DNA from: a virus
Taxonomy: Duplodnaviria; Heunggongvirae; Uroviricota; Caudoviricetes
IMG/VR virus record: IMGVR_UViG_3300037042_007115
Length of the DNA stretch: 64,000 nucleotides
Strand: one strand, 5' to 3'
Part shown: one piece after another, positions 3,699 through 55,419 of the stretch
How the letters are laid out: every line of letters begins with the position of its first letter
Numbering within the stretch: the stretch's first letter is position 1
Program-made: the position numbers and the translations under genes
The notes under the pieces: model-generated
The model's database searches: none
What the model saw: only the letters and a program-made list of their open reading frames with translations
Told to the model about the DNA's origin: nothing

Positions 3699-3715
3699 TT
3701 TCTGCTTTTTTGGTT

Positions 3716-3753
3716 AGATATATATGTTTTAGCGTAGCATAGCTATGTATACA
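3716..3753 (+). promoter_or_regulatory. promoter-family copy B (ATATATGTTTTAGCGTAGCATAGCTATGTATACA)
   Basis: Shares GTTTWRCG...AGCATAG.TATGTATA...AAGGTG with copies A and C-E. Confidence 0.5.
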
Positions 3754-3764
3754 AAGGTGTCAAA

Positions 3765-9476: not shown

Positions 9477-10026
9477 ACCCCCACAAAAAGAATACATTGA
9501 GATTAAAAAAGATGATCTAATTGAGTTTATTAAATCCGTTGGTTTTAAGATTGAAGAACAAATCTCTGTAAATACTGGACAGCACACTTTAGAAGTAAGT
9601 GGATATCCAAACACAGGAGATATATTTTTATTTGATTATACCCGTTCCCGTTCCCACCCCGCCACCCCCCTTGCACTACAGAAAAATGAAAAGGTAATCA
9701 AAAATGCCAAACTCCGTATTCGTCAATTATTCCTTGATGATAGCAAATGCGAACTCTGTGAAAAGGTTACGGAAGAGGATGGTTATGATGGGAATAATGA
9801 AGGGTGTGAAAAAGGACTATGCATAGAATGTGCAATCCACAAATCGTTGGTAGAGTTATCAGCCACCATCCGCAACGCCACGCTGGATTTACTTAAACCC
9901 GCACTTCTGTGTTTTTGCCCTCACAATTATGGATACACCGGTAGATGTCTCAATGATAAGTTGCATTGCGACGAGTGCATAAAATTATGGGTGGAAGAAT
10001 CCCTCCGCACCAAGGAGCAACCATGA
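9472..10026 (+). CDS. Cys-rich protein ending ...RTKEQP
   Basis: 184 aa. CELCE, CEKGLCIEC, CFCPHNYGYTGRC and CDEC clusters. The 3' end lies inside the second copy of the 23-bp repeat. Confidence 0.45.
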   Translation: MTPPQKEYIEIKKDDLIEFIKSVGFKIEEQISVNTGQHTLEVSGYPNTGDIFLFDYTRSRSHPATPLALQKNEKVIKNAKLRIRQLFLDDSKCELCEKVTEEDGYDGNNEGCEKGLCIECAIHKSLVELSATIRNATLDLLKPALLCFCPHNYGYTGRCLNDKLHCDECIKLWVEESLRTKEQP

Positions 10027-11954: not shown

Positions 11955-11989
11955 TGCACCGAAACTATCACTTTAACACTACTTTAGTG

Positions 11990-12028
11990 AGCTTTATAAG
12001 GTTTAGCGCAGCATTGTAGAGTATAACA
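11990..12028 (+). promoter_or_regulatory. promoter-family copy C (AGCTTTATAAGGTTTAGCGCAGCATTGTAGAGTATAACA)
   Basis: Near-identical to copies D and E over about 35 nt. Confidence 0.55.
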
Positions 12029-12594: not shown

Positions 12595-12783
12595 TGGGCC
12601 AGCAAGAAGCCATAGATGCATTACGTGAAAAGCGTGATGAATGCGACAGAGAAATTAGTCATGAGATGGATGAAAACTTCCAGAAAAGCTGGAAGGATAA
12701 GAAAGAAGCATATCAGTACGCTCTTAAAGTGCTAGGGGCTATTTGATACACTGGCCAAATCTTGGCCTTATTCTCTTTTAGTA

Positions 12784-12821
12784 AGCTTTATAAGGTTTAA
12801 CGCAGCATAGTTGTATGTAAC
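12784..12821 (+). promoter_or_regulatory. promoter-family copy D (AGCTTTATAAGGTTTAACGCAGCATAGTTGTATGTAAC)
   Basis: Identical to copy E over 38 nt. The ATG follows directly. Confidence 0.55.
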
Positions 12822-13133
12822 ATGACGTACTCAGAGAATGGAAGAGATCAGTGGGACCAGGCAAGCTTACTTGCTCGTAAGAATTCAGAGCAGTTAGTTT
12901 CCCTTAGGGGCCGCTGGGAAGATGAGCAGGAATATGAAAACTTTGATGAATACATCAAGGTTATTACAGCCCTGTTTCCGGGCTTTGAACTTTTTGCCTT
13001 CAAGAAGTCGAAGTTTAGCTTTAAGATCAAGATGCCAAGGCCGGTCCCGGATATGATTGTTCGGGTAGGTTTGACTCAAGTTACTTGGAAAATGGACATT
13101 ACCAAGGAACAGCGAGCTAGCATCAAGAAATAA
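12822..13133 (+). CDS. hypothetical protein (behind promoter-family copy D, near-leaderless)
   Basis: 103 aa. The ATG directly abuts the conserved ...GTATGTAAC element with no Shine-Dalgarno sequence. Confidence 0.45.
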   Translation: MTYSENGRDQWDQASLLARKNSEQLVSLRGRWEDEQEYENFDEYIKVITALFPGFELFAFKKSKFSFKIKMPRPVPDMIVRVGLTQVTWKMDITKEQRASIKK

Positions 13134-13155
13134 CTCAATCCCTCTTCTTTTAACT

Positions 13156-13194
13156 AGCTTTATAAGGTTTAACGCAGCATAGTTGTATGTAACA
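13156..13194 (+). promoter_or_regulatory. promoter-family copy E (AGCTTTATAAGGTTTAACGCAGCATAGTTGTATGTAACA)
   Basis: Identical to copy D. Followed by AGGTG and an ATG. Confidence 0.55.
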
Positions 13195-24589: not shown

Positions 24590-25039
24590 ATGGTACTCTG
24601 GAATGATGCACAACTAGGGATTATTCAGGCGGTAAAGGAGAACCGTCTTGCCTCGCTGAATTTAGCTAAGCGATATAAATGCCATGTCTGTTACCACGTC
24701 AGGTATGAGGATGAGGTAGAACAATCTCCTACAGGTAAGCTTCTTTGTATAGTTTGCAAGTCGCCTGTTTTTGAGATGTGCCCACTAGATCATACCCACT
24801 GTTCTCATTCTATAGAATCCGGCTTAGCGTATTGTCCCATTTGTGGCGTCGCTGTGTGTCCCTCTTGTGGTAGTCATGACGTAGAGCAAGTTTCTCGTGT
24901 AACGGGGTACCTTGCTTCCGTAAACGGCTGGAATAATGCCAAAGCTCAGGAACTTAAAGATAGAGTCCGAAGTAATGTCGTAAACTCAGAGCCAGTCCTT
25001 GTGTCTGCCCTCAAAGGTTCTTATTATCCTCTAGGATAA
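24590..25039 (+). CDS. multi-zinc-finger protein
   Basis: 149 aa with CHVC, CIVC, CPIC and CPSCG pairs. Confidence 0.4.
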   Translation: MVLWNDAQLGIIQAVKENRLASLNLAKRYKCHVCYHVRYEDEVEQSPTGKLLCIVCKSPVFEMCPLDHTHCSHSIESGLAYCPICGVAVCPSCGSHDVEQVSRVTGYLASVNGWNNAKAQELKDRVRSNVVNSEPVLVSALKGSYYPLG

Positions 25040-26075: not shown

Positions 26076-26516
26076 TTACGCCGGGGGGGCTGCAACTGCT
26101 GCTTTCTTCTCGGCTGCCGGTTTCTTCTCGGCTGCCGGTTTCTTCTCAGCTGCCGGTTTCTTCTCTGCACCCTCTACTGCGGGTTTCTTTGCTTTCTTCT
26201 TACGTGGGGCGCCTTCTCCAGGAACTGCGATTCCGAAGAATGTCATGATGTTAGTGACACGCACTGAGATGTTGTCTTTGCTGTAGTCAGCGAGGTGCTC
26301 ACAAATGTCCTTGAGGTCATTGAGTGCTGCCATCTCTTCTTGTGCCCGGCCGAGTTCAACGAGTTTAAGGTCGATGATCTTCGAGGTTTCAGTAATACGC
26401 TTCTGCGCAAGTGCTTCAACCTTTGCAAGTTTGTTCCCACGCTTTGCAGTCCGGAATTTCTTGCTGCTCAGTACTCTGAGGAGCATACCGATTTTCTTGA
26501 GAGTTTTGCGTTCCAT
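26076..26516 (-). CDS. histone-H1-like protein with (KKPAAE)n Lys/Ala/Pro-rich C-terminal tail
   Basis: 146 aa with a globular N-terminal part, then RKKKAKKPAVEGAEKKPAAEKKPAAEKKPAAEKKAAVAAPPA. The tail is encoded by about 3.3 tandem 18-bp repeats. Confidence 0.5.
   Translation of the reverse strand: MERKTLKKIGMLLRVLSSKKFRTAKRGNKLAKVEALAQKRITETSKIIDLKLVELGRAQEEMAALNDLKDICEHLADYSKDNISVRVTNIMTFFGIAVPGEGAPRKKKAKKPAVEGAEKKPAAEKKPAAEKKPAAEKKAAVAAPPA
26093..26166. repeat. tandem 18-bp repeat (CGGCTGCCGGTTTCTTCT, about 3.3 copies) inside the H1-like CDS
   Basis: Direct reading of the sequence. Copies differ by a single C/A substitution. Confidence 0.7.
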
Positions 26517-26894
26517 GATATGATTTCTCCAAATTGTTTTGTCACCCTTTTGCTTTGGGTATAATTAGTATGGATCACTTAAGTATATAATGCTTCCTGA
26601 GTTTGTAATGCCTTTCTCTCATAAATGTTTAAATTTAATTTAAAGTTGGGGCTAAAACACTTGAGATTGGTGACGATTATATTAAAAGATCCGTTTAATG
26701 TTTCCCTACCTAACAGGGATTGGCTTATTACGCCGAGTTTTTGTCTAGACTAATAATTGTTTGGTGGGTCTCATGGTTGTACTGGGGGGTATTCCCAGAA
26801 AATTTTTCCATAAATACAGAGAAGAAGAAGAGTAGTGTTTTAAGTTCAAAAACCTTTATGAGCCTATGCGCCCCACTCTATTATTGGTATAATT

Positions 26895-27088
26895 ACCCCT
26901 GTAGTGTAGCGGTCAATCATCTCGGACTTTGGGCGATGAAAAAATCTGTAACTCAAGATTAAGACTTGAAATCTAATCTTGTTACTGCCGTGGGCGTCAA
27001 CCCATCACAGTTATCGGACCTGTTTTCTTGACGGTCAGCAGGCATCGGAAGACATCCGGGGACGGCAGTTCAAATCTGTCCAGGGGGA
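26895..27088 (+). tRNA. tRNA-Gln(UUG)-like gene with a candidate ~121-nt intron at the canonical 37/38 position
   Basis: 5' half ACCCCTG-TA-GTGT-AGCGGTCAA-TCAT-C-TCGGA-CTTTGG gives acceptor, U8-A9, D arm with G18-G19, and anticodon stem-loop with C32-U33 and anticodon TTG. 3' half A-TCCGG-GGAC-GGCAG-TTCAAAT-CTGTC-CAGGGGG-A gives anticodon stem 3' strand, T arm with canonical TTCAAAT loop, and acceptor 3' strand. The two halves are separated by 121 nt (26933..27053). Position 1-72 is an A:G mismatch. Confidence 0.4.
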
Positions 27089-27387
27089 TTGCACGGACAG
27101 CTTCCATTTGGTATAGGGGAGTGGACCTCTACCCAGGCCGGTGTTTGGTAGGGTTATGTTCTTACGTGCGGTGCATAAGATGCCTAGAGGGCGCTGCAAC
27201 CCTCCAACATGCAGTAGGTTCTGTGGGAGCAAGACCCACCTTATGTATGAATTCTATGTTTAAGCCTAAAGAGTCTCGGGCCATCTCCAGACAACCTACG
27301 AGCAAGTATCCCGGCTCACCGAGGGTTCCTAGTTTATGGGAGAGATTTAAGTATTGGCTACACGGTCTTCTTTCATAAGGTGATTTT
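27089..27387 (+). ncRNA. candidate structured noncoding RNA or leader downstream of the tRNA
   Basis: About 300 nt that is GC-rich relative to its surroundings with no protein-like ORF. Several local and long-range complementarities: GGTATAGG...CCTCTACC, TTGGTAGGGTT...AACCCTCCAA, GTGGG...CCCAC. Confidence 0.3.
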
Positions 27388-28059
27388 ATGCGTTATATCT
27401 TTTTGTTTCTTTTGTTTATATCTGTTCTTTTTCCCCTAGCCTCTGCAAGTATTTATGTAATGCAGGGAGATACTCTTTACTGGGGCGATAATGCTGATTT
27501 AACCGGAGTCTATGGTTGGGAATGTACAGTTGCTTGGTGGAAAGGTGGAATTACAACTGCACAATGGCCAGATAGAACTGAAGAGGTTTGTTATCAGGCA
27601 CACAATATTGCTATTACACCAGAAAGATTCCCAGCAGGTACCTGGTATAAATGGAATGGTAAAGTAGAGGGGGCTGGAAATGATATAGCTTTCCATGTTG
27701 TGGGGGTATTACGCCCTATAGTCATTACACCTACCCCCAATACTACAGTAAATGTTACTAGTAATACAACTTTAGTCACCCGAGTACCCACAACTATAAT
27801 TACTAAGGCCCTAATAGCGCCTATTGCTCCCACACTTACAGCCCTACCCACAAGAATAGCTACACCTGTGCCTACTACCCAGGCTTCTTTTATACCGCAG
27901 ATTCCAACTCTTGCGCGTGTCCCCGTTGCTACTCCTACAGAAGAGGTTCCAGCAGAAGGAATTATTCCTCCAACTAAGTACCCGCCAATTCCAGTACTGA
28001 TTGTTGGCTTCTTTGGCATAGGATTAGTTGCATATTGGTGGGTACGCGGCAATTTTTAG
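27388..28059 (+). CDS. secreted Thr/Pro-rich glycoprotein-like protein with C-terminal TM anchor (PGF-CTERM-like)
   Basis: Signal peptide MRYIFLFLLFISVLFPLASA. Globular domain. Long Thr/Pro/Val-rich stalk. C-terminal hydrophobic helix PVLIVGFFGIGLVAYWWVRGNF. Confidence 0.55.
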   Translation: MRYIFLFLLFISVLFPLASASIYVMQGDTLYWGDNADLTGVYGWECTVAWWKGGITTAQWPDRTEEVCYQAHNIAITPERFPAGTWYKWNGKVEGAGNDIAFHVVGVLRPIVITPTPNTTVNVTSNTTLVTRVPTTIITKALIAPIAPTLTALPTRIATPVPTTQASFIPQIPTLARVPVATPTEEVPAEGIIPPTKYPPIPVLIVGFFGIGLVAYWWVRGNF

Positions 28060-28377
28060 GTGTTTACAGTGAGTCAGCTTGGTTTCATCACATATGACCC
28101 TCTGTCAATGGAACCTCGCGGCCCAGTTGTTAGGCTAGTTTTCTGGCTTGGGGGGCCACTACAACTTTTAGCTACTATTTTAACTGCTGTTGGTACATTT
28201 CTAGTAGCTCAGACTGATGCAAACTTAAGGTTTATAGGTTTTGGTGTTTGGTTCTGCAGCAATTTGCTTTGGATGGCTTGGGCAGCACGCACTAAAAATG
28301 CCGGGGGCATCCTAGTTACCTACTGCCTCAACTTCAGTTTGAATCTCCTGGGCATCTACAATAATTGGCCTTGGTGA
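28060..28377 (+). CDS. membrane protein
   Basis: 105 aa with three or four hydrophobic helices. Confidence 0.4.
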   Translation: MFTVSQLGFITYDPLSMEPRGPVVRLVFWLGGPLQLLATILTAVGTFLVAQTDANLRFIGFGVWFCSNLLWMAWAARTKNAGGILVTYCLNFSLNLLGIYNNWPW

Positions 28378-28415: not shown

Positions 28416-28498
28416 GGGAAGATTGTCGAACGGCTAAAGACATGTGGCCCAAGATCACATCTCGCAGGAGTTTGGGAGTTCAAATCTCCCTCTTCCCA
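28416..28498 (+). tRNA. tRNA-Leu(CAA)-like, class II with long variable arm
   Basis: Acceptor GGGAAGA/TCTTCCC pairs 7/7. D arm contains GG. Anticodon stem TGTGG/TCACA with loop CCCAAGA (anticodon CAA; position 33 is C, not U). Variable arm is 14 nt with a CTC/GAG stem. T arm is GGGAG-TTCAAAT-CTCCC. Discriminator is A. Confidence 0.55.
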
Positions 28499-31082: not shown

Positions 31083-32873
31083 TTATTTTACCTGGGCTTC
31101 AGGTTTATTGCCCGGCATTTCTGCTAGAGTTTTTGCCATGAAGGCGTTGAACAGGTTGGCACTCTGTCCTTCTCCGTTACCCCCCTGGACGAGGAAGTTG
31201 GGAGTAATCTGAACATGGCCATCTGCTACCTTCTTCATCACTTCAATCATAGTGATAGAAGAGGAACCCAGGACCTGCTTTTGTGCCTCATAAGCCGCCG
31301 CTGCACCTTCACCTACTTTCTGGGCGGCATATGCATCACCATCTGCTTTAGCGATTGTTGCATCACGGATACCGGCTGCTTCTTTCCTAGCTGCTTCGGC
31401 TTTGTCAAAGGCAATGTCGATTGACAACTTTGCAGCAATGATATCTGTCTGTTTGTCTGCCCTTGCTGTTTTTTCTGCTACTTCAATACGGCTCTCTTGG
31501 GCTTTGGCTTCTTCACCATACTGCTGTTGCTGCTGGACCGCAATCTCTTTCTTGGTCTGGGTTTCGAGTAGAGCTGCTGGAGTCTGGATATATGCAATTA
31601 ACAGGCCCTGAACTTCTACATGGTACCGGCTGAATTCTTTACGGGCTGCTGCAAGTGCCTGTTCCTGAAGAAGTGTCCTACTCCTGACGAATTCAATTGC
31701 CTGCTTTTCACCTGCTGCATTCCTGAATGAGGAATCAATCAATGGATGAGCAACCTGTTCAATCAAGTTAGCCACTGTACCAAACCTAGCGATGACTGCT
31801 GATGCATTAGCCGGGGGAATACGAATGATAAGCCGGACATCAACTTCTAGACCAAAACCATCCTGAGAGGTAACTTTTAACTGGCTGAACTTATAGAACT
31901 CAGTAGATTTCTCTCCGGATGCTTTTCCTGTTTGGCTTTGGGTTGCAATATCAGTTTCCTTATTACCTGAGCTTGCTGCCCAATCAATAGTTACTGCACT
32001 GGTTGGTACAAGTACCGCTTTATAGCCCCTGGTATTCAAGTTATATTTACCTGCGGTTACCGGAGACTTCAAAATACCCCGCTGGGTTTCATCAGTGATA
32101 AGAACTACTTCCACATCCTCTACATTAGGCTGTTGTAGGCTTGGGGCCAGACTGATTCCTGGTGGAATAGCTCTCTTCTCTAGCTCTTTCCCGACACTAG
32201 AAATGATGACTGCTACATAACCCGGCGGAACTTGGGCGACATTCTCTGATTGTACCTCAAACAGTAATGGGTTAATGTAATATTCCCCGGGCTGCAGAGT
32301 TTCCAGTTGAATACCCCTATGTCCTCCTGAGACAATAAAAGCATTCCCATCTGCAAAGTGCTGAGTATTTGCAGCAGGAGCAGGAGCAATCATATATTCA
32401 GCAGACAGAGGAATACCATCCTGAGCCGTAAGAATTCCTATCTTGTCACCGGGGATAACTACCGCGGGTGAAACTTTCACTGTAAACATAGCCCGGTTGA
32501 TCCTATGCGTTCCTGGGAGCAATATCCCAACTTGTGGGCCCTTGCATCCCCCGGCCTGTACAAAGGCTTTCGCATCCTGGAACCCATTGCACTCTACCAC
32601 GTCTCCCAGCAACCTGCCTGCCGGAATAGGCTTTCCTTCAATAGACCCCACGACACCTACTTGCCCGGGTGGAATCTCAACTACCGATGCCTTACGCACG
32701 GAAAAGACAATCGGCATCCTCCAGTAGAGCCCAGGCACAAGTGTGTCAGCCTGGACGCCGACTTCACCGTGTAATGCAATAATTTGCCCGGGAGACATTG
32801 TAGCACCAAACATATTCTTGGTGACAAGGCCAACTTCGTTATCTCGTATGAGATTAAATCCAAAGAATGACAT
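31083..32873 (-). CDS. SPFH/band-7 (flotillin-like) protein
   Basis: 596 aa. N-terminal hydrophobic segment. SPFH core. Long Ala/Glu/Lys/Gln coiled-coil flotillin-type region. Confidence 0.7.
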   Translation of the reverse strand: MSFFGFNLIRDNEVGLVTKNMFGATMSPGQIIALHGEVGVQADTLVPGLYWRMPIVFSVRKASVVEIPPGQVGVVGSIEGKPIPAGRLLGDVVECNGFQDAKAFVQAGGCKGPQVGILLPGTHRINRAMFTVKVSPAVVIPGDKIGILTAQDGIPLSAEYMIAPAPAANTQHFADGNAFIVSGGHRGIQLETLQPGEYYINPLLFEVQSENVAQVPPGYVAVIISSVGKELEKRAIPPGISLAPSLQQPNVEDVEVVLITDETQRGILKSPVTAGKYNLNTRGYKAVLVPTSAVTIDWAASSGNKETDIATQSQTGKASGEKSTEFYKFSQLKVTSQDGFGLEVDVRLIIRIPPANASAVIARFGTVANLIEQVAHPLIDSSFRNAAGEKQAIEFVRSRTLLQEQALAAARKEFSRYHVEVQGLLIAYIQTPAALLETQTKKEIAVQQQQQYGEEAKAQESRIEVAEKTARADKQTDIIAAKLSIDIAFDKAEAARKEAAGIRDATIAKADGDAYAAQKVGEGAAAAYEAQKQVLGSSSITMIEVMKKVADGHVQITPNFLVQGGNGEGQSANLFNAFMAKTLAEMPGNKPEAQVK

Positions 32874-37911: not shown

Positions 37912-38172
37912 TTAAAATAACTGCTCTATAGTAGAATCAAACTTGTCCCACACCAAGGATTTGTTGGGCCGGGCCCAGATAGAGTAGTTATTTGGGAGCC
38001 CCACTACCTTATAAGAGTGTTTTACTATATGGACTTTGATTGTTCCAACCTTTTCCAGGCGGATTTTTAATGCTTCTGCTTTTTCTTCTGATGATCGGAA
38101 TGCTATACACTTGTACTTTTTACCATAAAAAGTATAAAATTTTCCAATTGAGACTTCTTTATTATCTTTCAT
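37912..38172 (-). CDS. hypothetical protein
   Basis: 86-aa ORF. Confidence 0.35.
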   Translation of the reverse strand: MKDNKEVSIGKFYTFYGKKYKCIAFRSSEEKAEALKIRLEKVGTIKVHIVKHSYKVVGLPNNYSIWARPNKSLVWDKFDSTIEQLF

Positions 38173-51546: not shown

Positions 51547-54500
51547 TCATTCACTCCCCCAATCCCCGAAGTGTGTATCTGTTACAATGGGTACTGTAAG
51601 ATTCACCCCCAACTTGGCCAATAGTGGCGGACACTCTATGAGCTTCTTTATCTCGGGTAGAAGTTTATCTGCTATATCATCACGTATTTCCATAAGGATA
51701 GCATCATGAATAGTTCCTACGATGTTTAATACATCCTTTCCATAGGTCGTACTTAGTGCAACCACAGCCATCATCGTCATATCACTTGCAAATCCCTGAA
51801 CAGGCGCGTTTATTGAGTTGCGTTCTGCCTGTGCACGTACTCCCTCATCGGGTGACATAATCTCCGGCAGGTGTCTAATACGCCCATCAAGGCATTTTAC
51901 CTGTCCATACTGCCTTACCATCACTTTTTGCCGCTGGTGCCACTTTGGAAGCTCAGAATAGGTTTCAAAGAACCTCTGTCTAAATGCGGTAGCTTCCTCT
52001 ATTGTGAGGTCCGTTTCATATTTATCCCGGGCGTATTCCTGGAACTTCTTCTCCCGCATGCCGTAAAGGAACCCAAAATTACAGTTTCCCTGTATTCCCA
52101 CTTTATTGTCTCTTCTTATAACGATATTTTCTGCCTGGACTTGTACACAATATGCCATATGACTGCCGGGTATCTTTTGGAAGCTTAGGTGTGTTCTCGA
52201 GTCGAGTCGTCCGCCGGGCCTATAGGTAATTTTGTACCCCTCAGTTCTTTTCTTATCTCTAGGGGGCATAACATATAGTACTGCTCGTGTCCCAGAAGTA
52301 CAGGCCATAGCTTGCATTATATCCGCACTTTGTCGAACATGTGTAGTAAATTTTGTATATTTTTGAGCAAATTTTTCACTTGACCAAGAGTCCCAGTAAG
52401 CTGCTTCATCGAGATAAACTATTGCCGGGATGTCTGTTAGGCAGGACCAGGAGAGATTTTTATTATCATCAAGATACGGCTTTATCATCCCCATAATTTT
52501 CGGTGAGTTCATTTCAAAGATAGTTGCTCCATCAGCCCTTGTTCTACGGGTATAACTTACCCCATAGGCATCTAGAAGTTGTTTACATCTGTCTATTTTG
52601 TGCTGCTTTTTAAACCCAAATCTAAGGCGGGTGTGGTCTTTAAATGACCCATCAGCTGCGATCATAGCTAAGATTCGAGTTTCAGTTTCTGTTAGTTTAT
52701 ACTCCGTTCTTTTAAGGAGCCCAGCAGAGAATAGATAAGTATTTTGAGGAACTGAATCTGCGCGCCTCTTCTCTACACGTTCCGTGTTCCTATTGAAATA
52801 CAAAATTTCGTGATCTGCTGTTACTAATAGATCATTATTTCTATCTATGAAACTATACAGCTCTCTATTATTTTGGGATTGAAAAGCTATAGGCTTAGTA
52901 AACGATATTTCTTGCGTTTCTTGGAAATACTGCGCTACTTCATCTGTGCCATTATATTTATCAAATCTTACCCAACCGGCTTTTGTGAGTATTTCAGTAT
53001 CCCCTGAGAAGCATGCCTTGGCTTTCTTTCGCTCATCCTTAGTAATTAGCTCAGGGGGTTTTCCAGTGATAAGGGAAGCTGTCTTCCGGTGTATGTCGCC
53101 CTTCGGGTCATTGAAGATACCTATCATTGTTGGGTCCCCGCTTACCATAGCTGCTATCCTAAGCTCAACTTGGGAGTAATCACACTCTAATAGTCTCCAT
53201 CCTGGTGGGGCGCCTATAAGAGTTCTAATCTTTTTGTCACGTGGAACCTGCTGGAGGTTAGGGTCACTACATGAATTATGAACACAGAGCTCATTTGCTA
53301 TAAAATTATGCGTATCTTCTACCTCTATATCATACACAGGGAAGATTCCCGGTAGTTTCTCCACATAAGTAATCATATGATTCTGGGGCTTGGGCTTGGC
53401 GTTATCTGGTAGTTTGGCCAGTGTTCGGGTCCTACCATAAACTACTCTAGCTTCCTTAGTTTTACTTACAGTTTCCCCAGTAAAATGTAAATAGTTATAA
53501 TCACCGCGTGACCTATGCAGGGCCATAACATGCTCCCCATGATGATATCGTTTTCTCCATTTGATATATTTTCCCCCCGCTAGATCTTCTACTTTGATAT
53601 AACTTCCGGAGGTTAACCGAATTGGGTGGTTCCCTGTAGCATCCAGAAAACCCTCAGTATGCCCCCCTTGCCCCACCCAATGCACTCTATAACAGGGCTT
53701 GCTGCCCGTAAGCCCAGAACTCTTGACTTTTTTCAAAGTTAACTTTAATTCATCATCAAACGAATATACTAAGTCTCCCGTCTTTATATCTTGGATGGGC
53801 CTAGTTCCACCCGGTATCATGACTTCTGTACCTTCTCTTAAGCAGAGTCTGCCAGTAACGGTCCCGTGCAGCTTAAAGTTAGGATGTAGTCTTTCGTGCG
53901 GACCTAAGAATTTCTTCCACCCCTCAATAAAGCTCGATACCTGCTTAGCCAGCTCCCTATGTTTGAGTAATAAATCAATTCCTTCGTGTTGACCTTTCAG
54001 TCGTTGAAGAATACCTTCTGCAGTAGAGGGTGCACCAGACTTAGTAAGTTCTAATGGTACCAACTTCCAATCCTCGAATAAGATCTTACCAACCTGCTTA
54101 GGACTGTTCCAGTTTACCCCAGGAGCCATAGCCTCTAGTTTATCATGTACCTCAGCGAGTTCAGCTTTAAGGACAATTTCCAGTGCGGCTAGACGCTCTT
54201 TATGGACGAATACGCCATGACACTCAATATCTTCAAAGGCTTCAAACGCCGGCATAATAAGGAACTTAAAAAGCTTAAGGAGATCAGCATTCTTCATTAA
54301 CTGACCACGCTGCATTTTATATAACCTGAGAGTGTACAAAACATCATAGCCACAATACTCATACATCTTCTCTAGGTCTGGGCCTTGTCCTCTTTTATCT
54401 TCAGATGAGATATCATAAGCTGGAGCATTAAGATGAACCTTAGCCAGATACTTTAGGCCACATGGCTCATTCTCATTCAAGATATGGGCTGCCATCATGG

Positions 54501-55419
54501 TATCAAAAGTAATTGGGAACCTAATATCATAGTGTACCCGGAGCCACCTATTATCAAACTTCCCATTCTGAGTGACAATCTTCTTGCCTTTCATCATAAG
54601 TAAGATTTCTTGGAGGCCTTCCTTCATGCCACCTTTAGTCTTGAAGATAAGATTCTCACCAGACATAGGCAGCACCCACTGTCTCTCCTGTGTCAGCTCA
54701 TTATCCGCATATCTGGAGATGCCCAAACAGTTAATATCTGCGCCTTCTTCTCTCGGGTCTAAACAAGTGGTTTCTAAGTCAAAGCCAATTACTGGGCAGT
54801 CTTTGAGGTCATGCAGCATTTCTTTGAACTGCTCTACATTTCTTATGATAGTAAGGTTTAAGCCGGTACTAGGCTTCCAGGTACCATTGATTATTTCAAA
54901 GAACTTTTTCATATCTGATTTAAGCGGGGCTTCTTTCTTTGGATCCCGGAGTGCTGCAGCTGGATGAAATGCAGGTAAGTATGTTATACCCTCTTTTTCA
55001 ATAGGAACCCCATGAATATCCATAATCCCGCTGGCTCCTTTGCCTAAGACGCCTTTTAAGGCTACCGCACCCATAACAATGATGAATTTAGGTTTAACCT
55101 CATCTATTTCTCTTTGAAGATGCACCTTACATGCTTTAATTTCAGCTTGTGTAGGAGATTCATTTTCAGGTGCAGAACAGTGAATTAAATGAGTCAAATA
55201 AAGGGTATCTCTACTTACTCCATTCTCCATCAAAATTCGGTCTAGGAGTCGCCCGGCATTTCCGGGGAAGGGTTTTGTAAGCTCTGATTTATAATTAGTG
55301 GGTGCCTCCCCTATTATCATAACATTACAGGGGGTAGGGCCCTGGCCCATAACGCATACTAACGGGGAACTTGCATACCGGGTGCAAAGTTTGCAACTTG
55401 AATCTCCAAAAACAGGCAT
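51547..55419 (-). CDS. family-A DNA polymerase with N-terminal family-4 UDG-like domain and 3'-5' exonuclease domain, interrupted by two inteins
   Basis: UDG-like region: CKLC Fe-S Cys pair, GEAPT (GE[AG]PG-like motif A), F.GNAGRLL, HPAAALR (HPSxxLR-like motif B). Exonuclease motif I IGFDLETT. PolA pre-motif A TGRL//SCSDPNLQQVP. Motif A CDYSQVELRIAA. Motif B RKKAKA//CNFGFLYG. Motif C IHDAIL (HDA rather than HDE). Confidence 0.9.
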   Translation of the reverse strand: MPVFGDSSCKLCTRYASSPLVCVMGQGPTPCNVMIIGEAPTNYKSELTKPFPGNAGRLLDRILMENGVSRDTLYLTHLIHCSAPENESPTQAEIKACKVHLQREIDEVKPKFIIVMGAVALKGVLGKGASGIMDIHGVPIEKEGITYLPAFHPAAALRDPKKEAPLKSDMKKFFEIINGTWKPSTGLNLTIIRNVEQFKEMLHDLKDCPVIGFDLETTCLDPREEGADINCLGISRYADNELTQERQWVLPMSGENLIFKTKGGMKEGLQEILLMMKGKKIVTQNGKFDNRWLRVHYDIRFPITFDTMMAAHILNENEPCGLKYLAKVHLNAPAYDISSEDKRGQGPDLEKMYEYCGYDVLYTLRLYKMQRGQLMKNADLLKLFKFLIMPAFEAFEDIECHGVFVHKERLAALEIVLKAELAEVHDKLEAMAPGVNWNSPKQVGKILFEDWKLVPLELTKSGAPSTAEGILQRLKGQHEGIDLLLKHRELAKQVSSFIEGWKKFLGPHERLHPNFKLHGTVTGRLCLREGTEVMIPGGTRPIQDIKTGDLVYSFDDELKLTLKKVKSSGLTGSKPCYRVHWVGQGGHTEGFLDATGNHPIRLTSGSYIKVEDLAGGKYIKWRKRYHHGEHVMALHRSRGDYNYLHFTGETVSKTKEARVVYGRTRTLAKLPDNAKPKPQNHMITYVEKLPGIFPVYDIEVEDTHNFIANELCVHNSCSDPNLQQVPRDKKIRTLIGAPPGWRLLECDYSQVELRIAAMVSGDPTMIGIFNDPKGDIHRKTASLITGKPPELITKDERKKAKACFSGDTEILTKAGWVRFDKYNGTDEVAQYFQETQEISFTKPIAFQSQNNRELYSFIDRNNDLLVTADHEILYFNRNTERVEKRRADSVPQNTYLFSAGLLKRTEYKLTETETRILAMIAADGSFKDHTRLRFGFKKQHKIDRCKQLLDAYGVSYTRRTRADGATIFEMNSPKIMGMIKPYLDDNKNLSWSCLTDIPAIVYLDEAAYWDSWSSEKFAQKYTKFTTHVRQSADIMQAMACTSGTRAVLYVMPPRDKKRTEGYKITYRPGGRLDSRTHLSFQKIPGSHMAYCVQVQAENIVIRRDNKVGIQGNCNFGFLYGMREKKFQEYARDKYETDLTIEEATAFRQRFFETYSELPKWHQRQKVMVRQYGQVKCLDGRIRHLPEIMSPDEGVRAQAERNSINAPVQGFASDMTMMAVVALSTTYGKDVLNIVGTIHDAILMEIRDDIADKLLPEIKKLIECPPLLAKLGVNLTVPIVTDTHFGDWGSE
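52084..53013 (-). mobile_element. intein 2 (310 aa) with LAGLIDADG-type homing-endonuclease domain, inserted in PolA motif B
   Basis: Residues 803-1112: N-terminal CFSGDTEILTKAG (block A), ILAMIAADGSF (LAGLIDADG), C-terminal ...VGIQGN, with +1 Cys. Removing it restores RKKAKACNFGFLYG. Codon-level check: the Cys-1 codon TGC lies at 53011..53013 on the - strand. Confidence 0.7.
53275..53844 (-). mobile_element. mini-intein 1 (190 aa) inserted within the PolA TGRL|SS motif
   Basis: Residues 526-715: N-terminal CLREGTEVMIPGG (block A), GFLDATGNHPI (block B, T..H), C-terminal VYDIEVEDTHNFIANELCVHN, with +1 Ser. No endonuclease domain. Removing it restores TGRLSCSDPNLQQVP. Confidence 0.75.

Follow-up and report, generated by a model that had tools for sequence, protein, structure and literature searches.

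A tRNA-Gln(UUG) gene with a 121-nt archaeal-type intron on a virus-like element of a probable methanogen host

The window analysed here, a 64-kb stretch of DNA (64,000 nt) from IMG/VR record IMGVR_UViG_3300037042_007115, carries a tRNA-Gln(UUG) gene that is split between tRNA positions 37 and 38 by a 121-nt intron. The structure of the gene, its exon boundaries, a bulge-helix-bulge (BHB) fold at the junctions, conservation across five elements and an archaeal type of tRNA were all observed. We consider it very likely that the tRNA-Gln(UUG) gene works, or did so until very recently, and that it sits on a virus-like element of a methanogen, most likely a member of the Methanoregulaceae or related Methanomicrobiales. 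The parts of the gene are as follows.

26895-27088 (+): tRNA-Gln(UUG) gene, whole, from a base by base reading of positions 26600-27400
26895-26932 (+): 5' exon, tRNA positions 1-37, from a match to positions 1-38 of a cellular tRNA-Gln profile model (E = 1.6e-9), ARAGORN and covariation of the stems
26933-27053 (+): intron, 121 nt, between tRNA positions 37 and 38, the gap separating the two profile matches
27054-27088 (+): 3' exon, tRNA positions 38-73, from a match to a 3'-half profile (E = 8.6e-6)

In brief, the acceptor stem as read from the sequence consists of an A1·G72 mismatch, with G72 at 27087, and six pairs, CCCCUG/CAGGGG. U8 and A9 both lie in the 5' exon, and the D arm is GUG(U)/(U)CAU with a loop, AGCGGUCAA, that includes GG. 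The anticodon stem is formed by UCGGA (26922-26926) and UCCGG (27055-27059), and the anticodon loop reads C32 U33 U34 U35 G36 G37 at 26927-26932 and continues with A38 at 27054. The 3' exon holds a variable region of 4 nt, the T arm GGCAG UUCAAAU CUGUC, the 3' acceptor strand CAGGGGG and the discriminator A73 at 27088; the same reading found no encoded CCA in this exon. The predicted spliced junction is GGACUUUGG joined to AUCCGGGG (junction k-mer CTCGGACTTTGGATCCGGGGACGG), and the predicted junction of a circular intron is CATCGGAAGACGCGATGAAAAA. The original prediction, made from the sequence by eye, had described a tRNA-Gln(UUG)-like gene with six of seven acceptor pairs, U8, A9, GG in the D loop, the anticodon loop C32-U33-UUG-G37, the T loop TTCAAAT and a 121-nt insert at 37/38. 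Each of these elements was found at the expected coordinates. ARAGORN on the spliced sequence and the archaeal tRNA-Gln profile agree on the identity of the gene, and the profile breaks between model positions 38 and 39, that is between 26932 and 27054 of the window, matching the numbering made by hand.

ARAGORN in intron mode, which had been suggested as a check, calls a tRNA at 26896-27087. Its two calls in the window are the tRNA-Gln gene and an intronless tRNA-Leu(CAA), and a single false call was obtained across 40 dinucleotide-preserving shuffles of the window. With the insert removed, ARAGORN names the sequence tRNA-Gln(ttg). In default mode the tRNA-Leu(CAA) at 28416-28498 was the sole call in the window, and the tRNA-Gln gene was missed. 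Profile hidden Markov models (HMMs) were built from 81 unique cellular archaeal tRNA-Gln sequences. The HMM covering the 3' half only, which played no part in choosing the 81 genes, has a single significant match in the 64 kb, at 27054-27085; this match begins on the very base predicted to open the 3' exon. The full-length HMM places model positions 1-38 at 26895-26932 and positions 39-70 at 27054-27085, and the intron-deleted window gives a single match of 63.6 bits (E = 7e-19). When the spliced sequence was compared by blastn with 50,697 phage genomes, the nine best matches were annotated tRNA-Gln genes, those of Haloarcula tailed viruses among them, with tRNA-Gln alignments that cross the splice junction; three weaker, short matches fell by chance in Erwinia phage protein genes. 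The signal for tRNA-Gln clearly exceeds what chance would give.

The sequences at the two junctions form a complete hBHBh' structure, with the 5-bp anticodon stem, a 3-nt bulge, a 4-bp helix, a second 3-nt bulge and a 5-bp outer helix. Its parts are given below.

26927-26930 (+): central BHB helix, 5' strand CUUU (tRNA positions 32-35), pairing with GAAG in 4 of 4 positions
27048-27051 (+): central BHB helix, 3' strand GAAG, pairing with CUUU
26931-26933 (+): 5' bulge, G36 and G37 followed by G; predicted 5' cleavage 26932/26933, from the geometry
27052-27054 (+): 3' bulge, A and C followed by A38; predicted 3' cleavage 27053/27054, from the geometry and the profile break
26934-26938 (+): outer BHB helix h, 5' strand CGAUG (intron bases 2-6), pairing with CAUCG
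27043-27047 (+): outer BHB helix h, 3' strand CAUCG, also formed when the anticodon arm plus intron is folded to minimum energy without constraints

The 3-4-3 arrangement at both junctions had been foreseen and was recovered when the region around them was folded, with all four central pairs formed and the bulges GG/G and AC/A (the slash marks the predicted cut). The outer helix CGAUG/CAUCG was absent from that earlier description; it completes the hBHBh' structure and lies within the unconstrained minimum-energy fold. We infer the position of the 5' cut from where the profile breaks and from how the archaeal splicing endonuclease is known to behave. For the anticodon arm plus intron, the fold constrained to the BHB has an energy of -35.3 kcal/mol versus -37.2 kcal/mol for the optimum, a difference of 1.9, and this optimum already holds the outer helix and the anticodon stem.

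Relatives of the element were traced via homologues of its DUF3821 protein (27388-28059) and SPFH protein (31083-32873), which led to syntenic contigs from other sequencing projects. The tRNA-Gln(UUG) genes compared, with their introns, are listed here.

Window, Lake Zurich metagenome, also in Logan SRR11849211: intron of 121 nt
L132 and L133, SRR29243429 and SRR29243430: intron of 95 nt
L134 and L135, SRR22184543 and SRR22184541: intron of 122 nt
L179, ERZ15185613, a 101.6-kb contig: intron of 103 nt
L183, SRR8925719: intron of 55 nt

L133 and L135 are duplicate contigs, and the distinct genes are those of the window, L132, L134, L179 and L183. The intron site is identical in all five, the introns of the four relatives range from 55 to 122 nt, and the neighbouring proteins are only about 50-75% identical among the five elements. 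An alignment of the exons and intron ends of the five genes has 97.9% of its cells in standard pairs and compensatory changes at 15 of 29 base pairs; the window copy forms 28 of the 29. In the outer BHB helix every one of the five pairs shows compensatory changes, the variants being CGAUG/CAUCG, CAGCG/CGCUG, UCACG/CGUGA, UGGUU/AAUCA and UACAG/CUGAA. The central helix is held fixed by the anticodon loop, and a helix of the CUUU/GAAG type is common to all five viral genes and to cellular intron-bearing tRNA-Gln genes. None of 500 shuffles attained any of the covariation measures, and sliding the pairing partners dropped the pairing to 36-50%.

Other searches for relatives gave little. The exon-intron junction pattern CTCGGACTTTGGGCGATGA had six matches in metagenome contigs, all of them chance matches inside bacterial coding sequences that encode LGLWAM. 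When 5' exon, D arm, 3' junction (GAAGACATCCGGGRAC) and an intronless form of the gene were scanned against IMG/VR, no relative of the element came up, only unrelated tRNA-Gln or tRNA-Glu genes or chance matches, and IMG/VR scans with the neighbouring proteins gave no usable relative. An exact 22-mer from the 5' exon had zero matches in GTDB genomes, and blastn of the whole non-coding region against phage genomes found nothing relevant.

The window holds about 120 mostly small open reading frames (ORFs) that are densely packed. The replication module comprises a family A polymerase (PolA+UDG), a PD-(D/E)XK nuclease, AAA_24, DUF669 and an SNF2 helicase, and nucleotide metabolism is represented by ThyA, Tmk, dCMP deaminase, dUTPase and MazG. 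The core replication genes follow one another as they do in the complete 44-kb myovirus genome MW202455. The polymerase (1290 aa, 51547-55419, minus strand) has an N-terminal uracil-DNA glycosylase domain and an intein (Intein_splicing, Hint) at about residues 526-715; its homologue in L179 has 1077 aa and no intein match. ORFs of 383 aa and 395 aa had no homologues in the phage database.

No capsid, portal, terminase or tail genes were recognised in the 64-kb window, and because no capsid gene was recognised there the label "virus" rests on the phage-type replication module. We regard the element as a probable virus on the basis of its gene content. The earlier description of the gene as virus-encoded is supported by the synteny of this module with a tailed-virus genome, but not by any capsid, portal or terminase gene recognised in the window. 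A lack of recognised structural genes would also suit some other kind of extrachromosomal element, such as a large plasmid, or an archaeal chromosomal island; so would the record of a 178-kb contig whose proteins include ones identical to the window's. We hold this to be unlikely, since the replication and nucleotide module is typical of tailed phages and ordered as in the 44-kb myovirus, and since the window is densely packed with small ORFs and has no cellular housekeeping genes that we could see. The contig in question comes from JGI and measures 178,173 bp; the window is seemingly part of a contig of up to this length. If viral, the genome would exceed that of the archaeal tailed virus HGTV-1 (143,855 bp), described in a 2026 paper as the largest known archaeal virus genome.

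Several features point to the host. A degenerate pattern of the 5' half of the tRNA retrieves almost exclusively archaeal genomes. The spliced tRNA is identical at 65 of 73 positions (89%) to intronless tRNA-Gln genes in metagenome-assembled genomes (MAGs) of Methanoregulaceae and Methanomicrobiales, and the local G+C content of those loci is 45%, versus 42% for the window. The SPFH/Band_7 protein (596 aa, 31083-32873, minus strand) is 60-66% identical to its closest homologues, those with names coming from Methanoregula, Methanospirillum and Bathyarchaeota, and 67% identical to a partial Methanocella protein. The gene is apparently host-derived and is kept by all four unique relative contigs. 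In the two contigs of cellular-looking context that carry the closest SPFH homologues, the gene adjoins a TRM methyltransferase gene. The list of host indicators also includes the DUF3821 protein, which scores above the Pfam cutoff, and TATA-like promoter blocks. An MC1-like ORF of 86 aa (37912-38172, minus strand) gives a weak signal, with 20.3 bits versus a Pfam cutoff of 23 and E = 0.012 to PDB 1t23; L183 has an archaeal histone-fold protein instead. The archaeal host proposed in the original prediction is in line with the BHB intron, the archaeal-type tRNA, the DUF3821 and SPFH proteins and the promoter blocks.

A number of observations weigh against a functional tRNA-Gln gene of a methanogen virus. 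The Rfam tRNA model reported neither half of the gene on unspliced DNA; both this model and ARAGORN in default mode miss the gene because neither accommodates the 121-nt insertion. Covariance scores below threshold for both halves had been named beforehand as an argument against the gene, and this applies to the Rfam model on unspliced DNA, whereas the archaeal profile HMM matches both exons. For the whole precursor, the cloverleaf plus BHB has an energy of -54.0 kcal/mol and thus lies 4.2 above the minimum of -58.2 kcal/mol; the fold is accessible, yet it is not the computed optimum. The stability of the precursor is unexceptional (z = -1.0), and the precursor with both non-coding flanks likewise showed no unusual stability (z from -1.4 to +0.9). 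Neither an endonuclease gene nor a ligase gene was found on the element, and the window has no recognisable tRNA-processing gene, so that splicing would depend wholly on the host. Cleavage by EndA and ligation by RtcB to a mature tRNA are predicted, as is the methanogen host.

The last such point concerns the A1·G72 mismatch, which had been singled out as unusual. It is present only in the window copy; the four related genes and the nearest cellular genes have A1-U72. GatDE has been reported to recognise the A1-U72 pair (PMC2943598), and A1·G72 could therefore impair amidation, so that the window allele may be weakened. Taken further, the mismatch would suit a decaying pseudogene, in which a once functional family member lost its function through the T-to-G change at position 72. 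This seems to us quite improbable. The change is a single one; the other stems, the BHB and the conserved loops are intact, with the 28 pairs noted above formed, and the promoter block is conserved. The tRNA may also tolerate an unpaired 1:72 position, since A-U pairs are weak in any case.

ARAGORN with the -i option prints its own parse for the window, in which the gene is a tRNA-Pro(UGG), the intron measures 99 nt and the variable arm is long; we give this parse next to no credence. It requires mispairing in the anticodon stem as well as an extra arm of unusual length. The same program reads the relatives, including the duplicates L133 and L135, as intron-containing tRNAs with a UUG loop (Gln(ttg) in five of six, Stop(tta) in L183), the tRNA-Gln profile homology breaks at 37/38, and the Gln parse gives a perfect BHB with covariation. 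That the insert is a self-splicing group I intron, a chance insertion or an attachment-site remnant in the tRNA of a bacterial phage can practically be dismissed: bacterial and phage tRNA genes can hold group I introns in the anticodon loop and the polymerase resembles those of bacterial phages, but a group I core needs more than the 121 nt present, which have no Rfam intron match at any threshold, both exons are complete with no integrase seen in the window, and an archaeal character is seen in the tRNA type, the promoters and several proteins.

For a working tRNA-Gln(UUG) gene, we suggest the following route of expression. An archaeal promoter of the TATA type, about 40 nt upstream of the gene, would drive transcription, which would start about 15 nt before the tRNA, and RNase P and RNase Z would trim the precursor. 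The host EndA would recognise hBHBh' and cut in both 3-nt bulges, after G37 and before A38, after which the host RtcB would ligate the exons and a CCA-adding enzyme would complete a tRNA of 73 nt plus CCA. Charging would follow the archaeal indirect route, by a glutamyl-tRNA synthetase (GluRS) of the non-discriminating type and then GatDE. The freed 121-nt intron would probably be circularised, as archaeal introns generally are. The processing and splicing steps are modelled on the archaeal pathway reviewed in PMC4090602.

CAA makes up 48% of the glutamine codons in the window, versus 25% and 13% in the candidate host loci. The benefit to the element would probably be an added capacity for reading CAA. 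Such a role in codon supply is plausible for tRNA-Gln, and the case for tRNA-Leu(CAA) is weaker.

All five elements bear the intron and the most similar cellular tRNA-Gln genes are intronless, and for this reason it may be asked if the intron is kept by selection in the viral lineage and not merely tolerated. A further argument is that two of the introns, those of the window and L134, have a multi-helix fold in common, in which 13 pairs are compensatory and the hairpin loop CUUGAAA is invariant. If retained by selection, the intron could shield the gene or its precursor from an anticodon-loop nuclease, block recombination with the host gene, or act as a stable circular regulatory RNA. Retention through a benefit to the virus is allowed by the evidence, which does not require it, and we find it doubtful.

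The introns of the window and L134 align end to end with 66% identity (z = 5.2 versus shuffles) and share 34 pairs, arranged as three hairpins plus two helices, one of which is the closing helix. The interior similarity of all other intron pairs is about at shuffle level. Since only the window and L134 interiors are significantly similar, a conserved intron RNA throughout the family is unsupported; as judged from these alignments, what is conserved across the group is the presence of the intron, its position and the BHB frame, and not its content. A box C/D guide RNA was considered and rejected, as the only C-like motif, GCGAUGA, is part of the outer helix with its Watson-Crick pairs and no CUGA lies close to the 3' end. 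Rfam gave no match on the intron, snoRNA and sRNA families included, even at E up to 10. Pairing between an intron loop and the T loop (UUGAA with UUCAA) was likewise rejected; it works in the window and fails in L134, where the T loop is UUCGAAU.

In Archaea, the standard type of tRNA intron is a BHB intron at 37/38. Among the cellular archaeal tRNA-Gln genes that we retrieved, only about 10 of 120 contain introns. The intron-bearing tRNA-Gln(UUG) genes compared here (L022, L072, L095, L057, L048, L029 and L100) come from MAGs of Thermoplasmatales, Methanosarcinales, Woesearchaeota and Nanohalarchaeota. They share with the viral gene the 37/38 site, the pairing of exon CUUU with GAAG, AAAG or GAGG before the last two intron bases, and the bulges GG/N and NN/A. 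They differ in being chromosomal, most of their introns are 14-53 nt long, and the viral intron has no sequence similarity to them. The tRNA-Gln(UUG) genes of the Methanoregulaceae and Methanomicrobiales (L107, L062 and L014) are alike in 65 of 73 bases, including the acceptor ACCCCUG/CAGGGG, the D arm and the loop CUUUGGA. These genes are, in contrast, intronless, with A1-U72 and a T loop UUCGAAU where the viral gene has UUCAAAU.

The closest viral case is the "tRNA Ala (tgc) + Intron" of HGTV-1 (NC_021328, 49226-49328, minus strand), also a tRNA gene of an archaeal tailed virus split at 37/38, and a 2026 re-analysis of HGTV-1 repeats this annotation. The original prediction called intron-bearing viral tRNAs rare; this is fair, but with the HGTV-1 precedent the present gene is not the first. 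The HGTV-1 gene differs in its isotype, its intron of about 30 nt and its haloarchaeal host, and that virus has about 34-36 tRNA genes together with RtcB and Rnl2 ligases and a CCA-adding enzyme, whereas the window has two tRNAs. A long intron of about 100 nt is also found in tRNA-Trp(CCA) of Haloferax volcanii. That intron is euryarchaeal, at the canonical position and removed via a BHB (PMC4090602); unlike the window intron, which is without a C/D pair, it is a box C/D guide that directs the methylation of C34 and U39. Group I introns of bacterial, cyanobacterial and phage tRNA genes likewise interrupt the anticodon loop, but they are self-splicing, longer than 200 nt and without a bulge-helix-bulge, and no such model matches the window. 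New in the present case are the isotype, the length of the intron, the putative methanogen host, the conservation across the group and the contrast with the intronless genes of the presumed host.

The tRNA-Gln gene is part of a conserved cassette, for which the following further features were found.

26851-26862 (+): putative TFIIB recognition element (BRE)/TATA-type promoter element AACCTTTATGAG for tRNA-Gln, a conserved block of inferred function
26873-26887 (+): conserved block CCACTCTATTATTGG, probable transcription-start region about 20-25 nt past the TATA element, from the alignment of relatives
27388-28059 (+): gene for a DUF3821-domain secreted or membrane protein (Pfam DUF3821, 28.5 bits, cutoff 23)
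28060-28377 (+): ORF for a small membrane protein, with a similar-sized ORF at the same place in L132, L134 and L179
28416-28498 (+): tRNA-Leu(CAA), intronless, second tRNA of the cassette (ARAGORN; Rfam tRNA, 45.3 bits)

The upstream block AAWAACCTTTATGAG is conserved in the window, L132 and L134. The 9-mer AACCTTTAT has three copies in the window, each intergenic and upstream of a correctly oriented gene; by count it is not significantly enriched there (3 observed versus 1.25 expected). CCACTCTATTATTGG is kept in all four aligned relatives, with a leader of varying length from the block to the 5' end of the tRNA, and transcription would be expected to start within this region. DUF3821 homologues lie downstream of the intron-bearing tRNA-Gln in L132 and L134, and tRNA-Leu(CAA) accompanies tRNA-Gln in L132, L133, L134 and L179. 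The order of the cassette in the window, L132, L134 and L179 is tRNA-Gln first, then the DUF3821-type gene, the small membrane ORF and tRNA-Leu(CAA).

The 299-nt spacer after tRNA-Gln contains a block of about 95 nt (27160-27255, plus strand) that is shared with L132 (approximately 9790-9890) and is not found in L134 or L179. The shared fold has 23 pairs, six of them compensatory, with the hairpins GAGGG..CCCUC and GUGGG..CCCAC, and the block may be a small RNA that is co-transcribed with the tRNA. On the other side of the tRNA-Gln gene, a 146-aa ORF (26076-26516, minus strand) encodes a C-terminal tandem (KKPAAE)n from an 18-nt DNA repeat at 26096-26167; this ORF matches no family, and its place beside the tRNA is kept in L132 and L134. 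The relatives have an extra ORF of 148-152 aa directly upstream of the tRNA-Gln promoter (L132 9050-9496, L134 9117-9563, L179 21037-21495), which is not in the window, where 26517-26850 is non-coding. A 149-aa ORF (24590-25039, plus strand), also kept in L132 and L134, matches only the C-terminal glycyl-radical end of NrdD (positions 505-560 of 562) and resembles a stand-alone "spare part" glycyl-radical protein. Further away, the repeat TTTAGTNAGCTTTATAAGGTTTAACGCAGCATAG occurs in five copies on the plus strand (868-916, 3706-3754, 11980-12028, 12774-12822 and 13146-13194), just upstream of plus-strand ORFs; going by sequence and placement, these look like archaeal BRE/TATA promoters of one temporal class of genes.

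Default ARAGORN and the Rfam tRNA model miss genes of this kind, and tRNA inventories of archaeal viruses are therefore probably incomplete. The intron, which needs archaeal (or eukaryotic) splicing machinery, would tie an uncultured virus-like element to an archaeal host, and the sequence of the tRNA narrows this host to Methanomicrobiales of freshwater lakes. To our knowledge, very few viruses of Methanomicrobiales are known. A viral tRNA can depend on host splicing, and expression of a viral translation factor would then pass through EndA and RtcB. The role of introns in virus-host conflict has so far been discussed mainly from the side of the host (PMC4090602). With intron-bearing viral copies and intronless host copies, it may be tested if a tRNA intron gives an advantage in such conflict.

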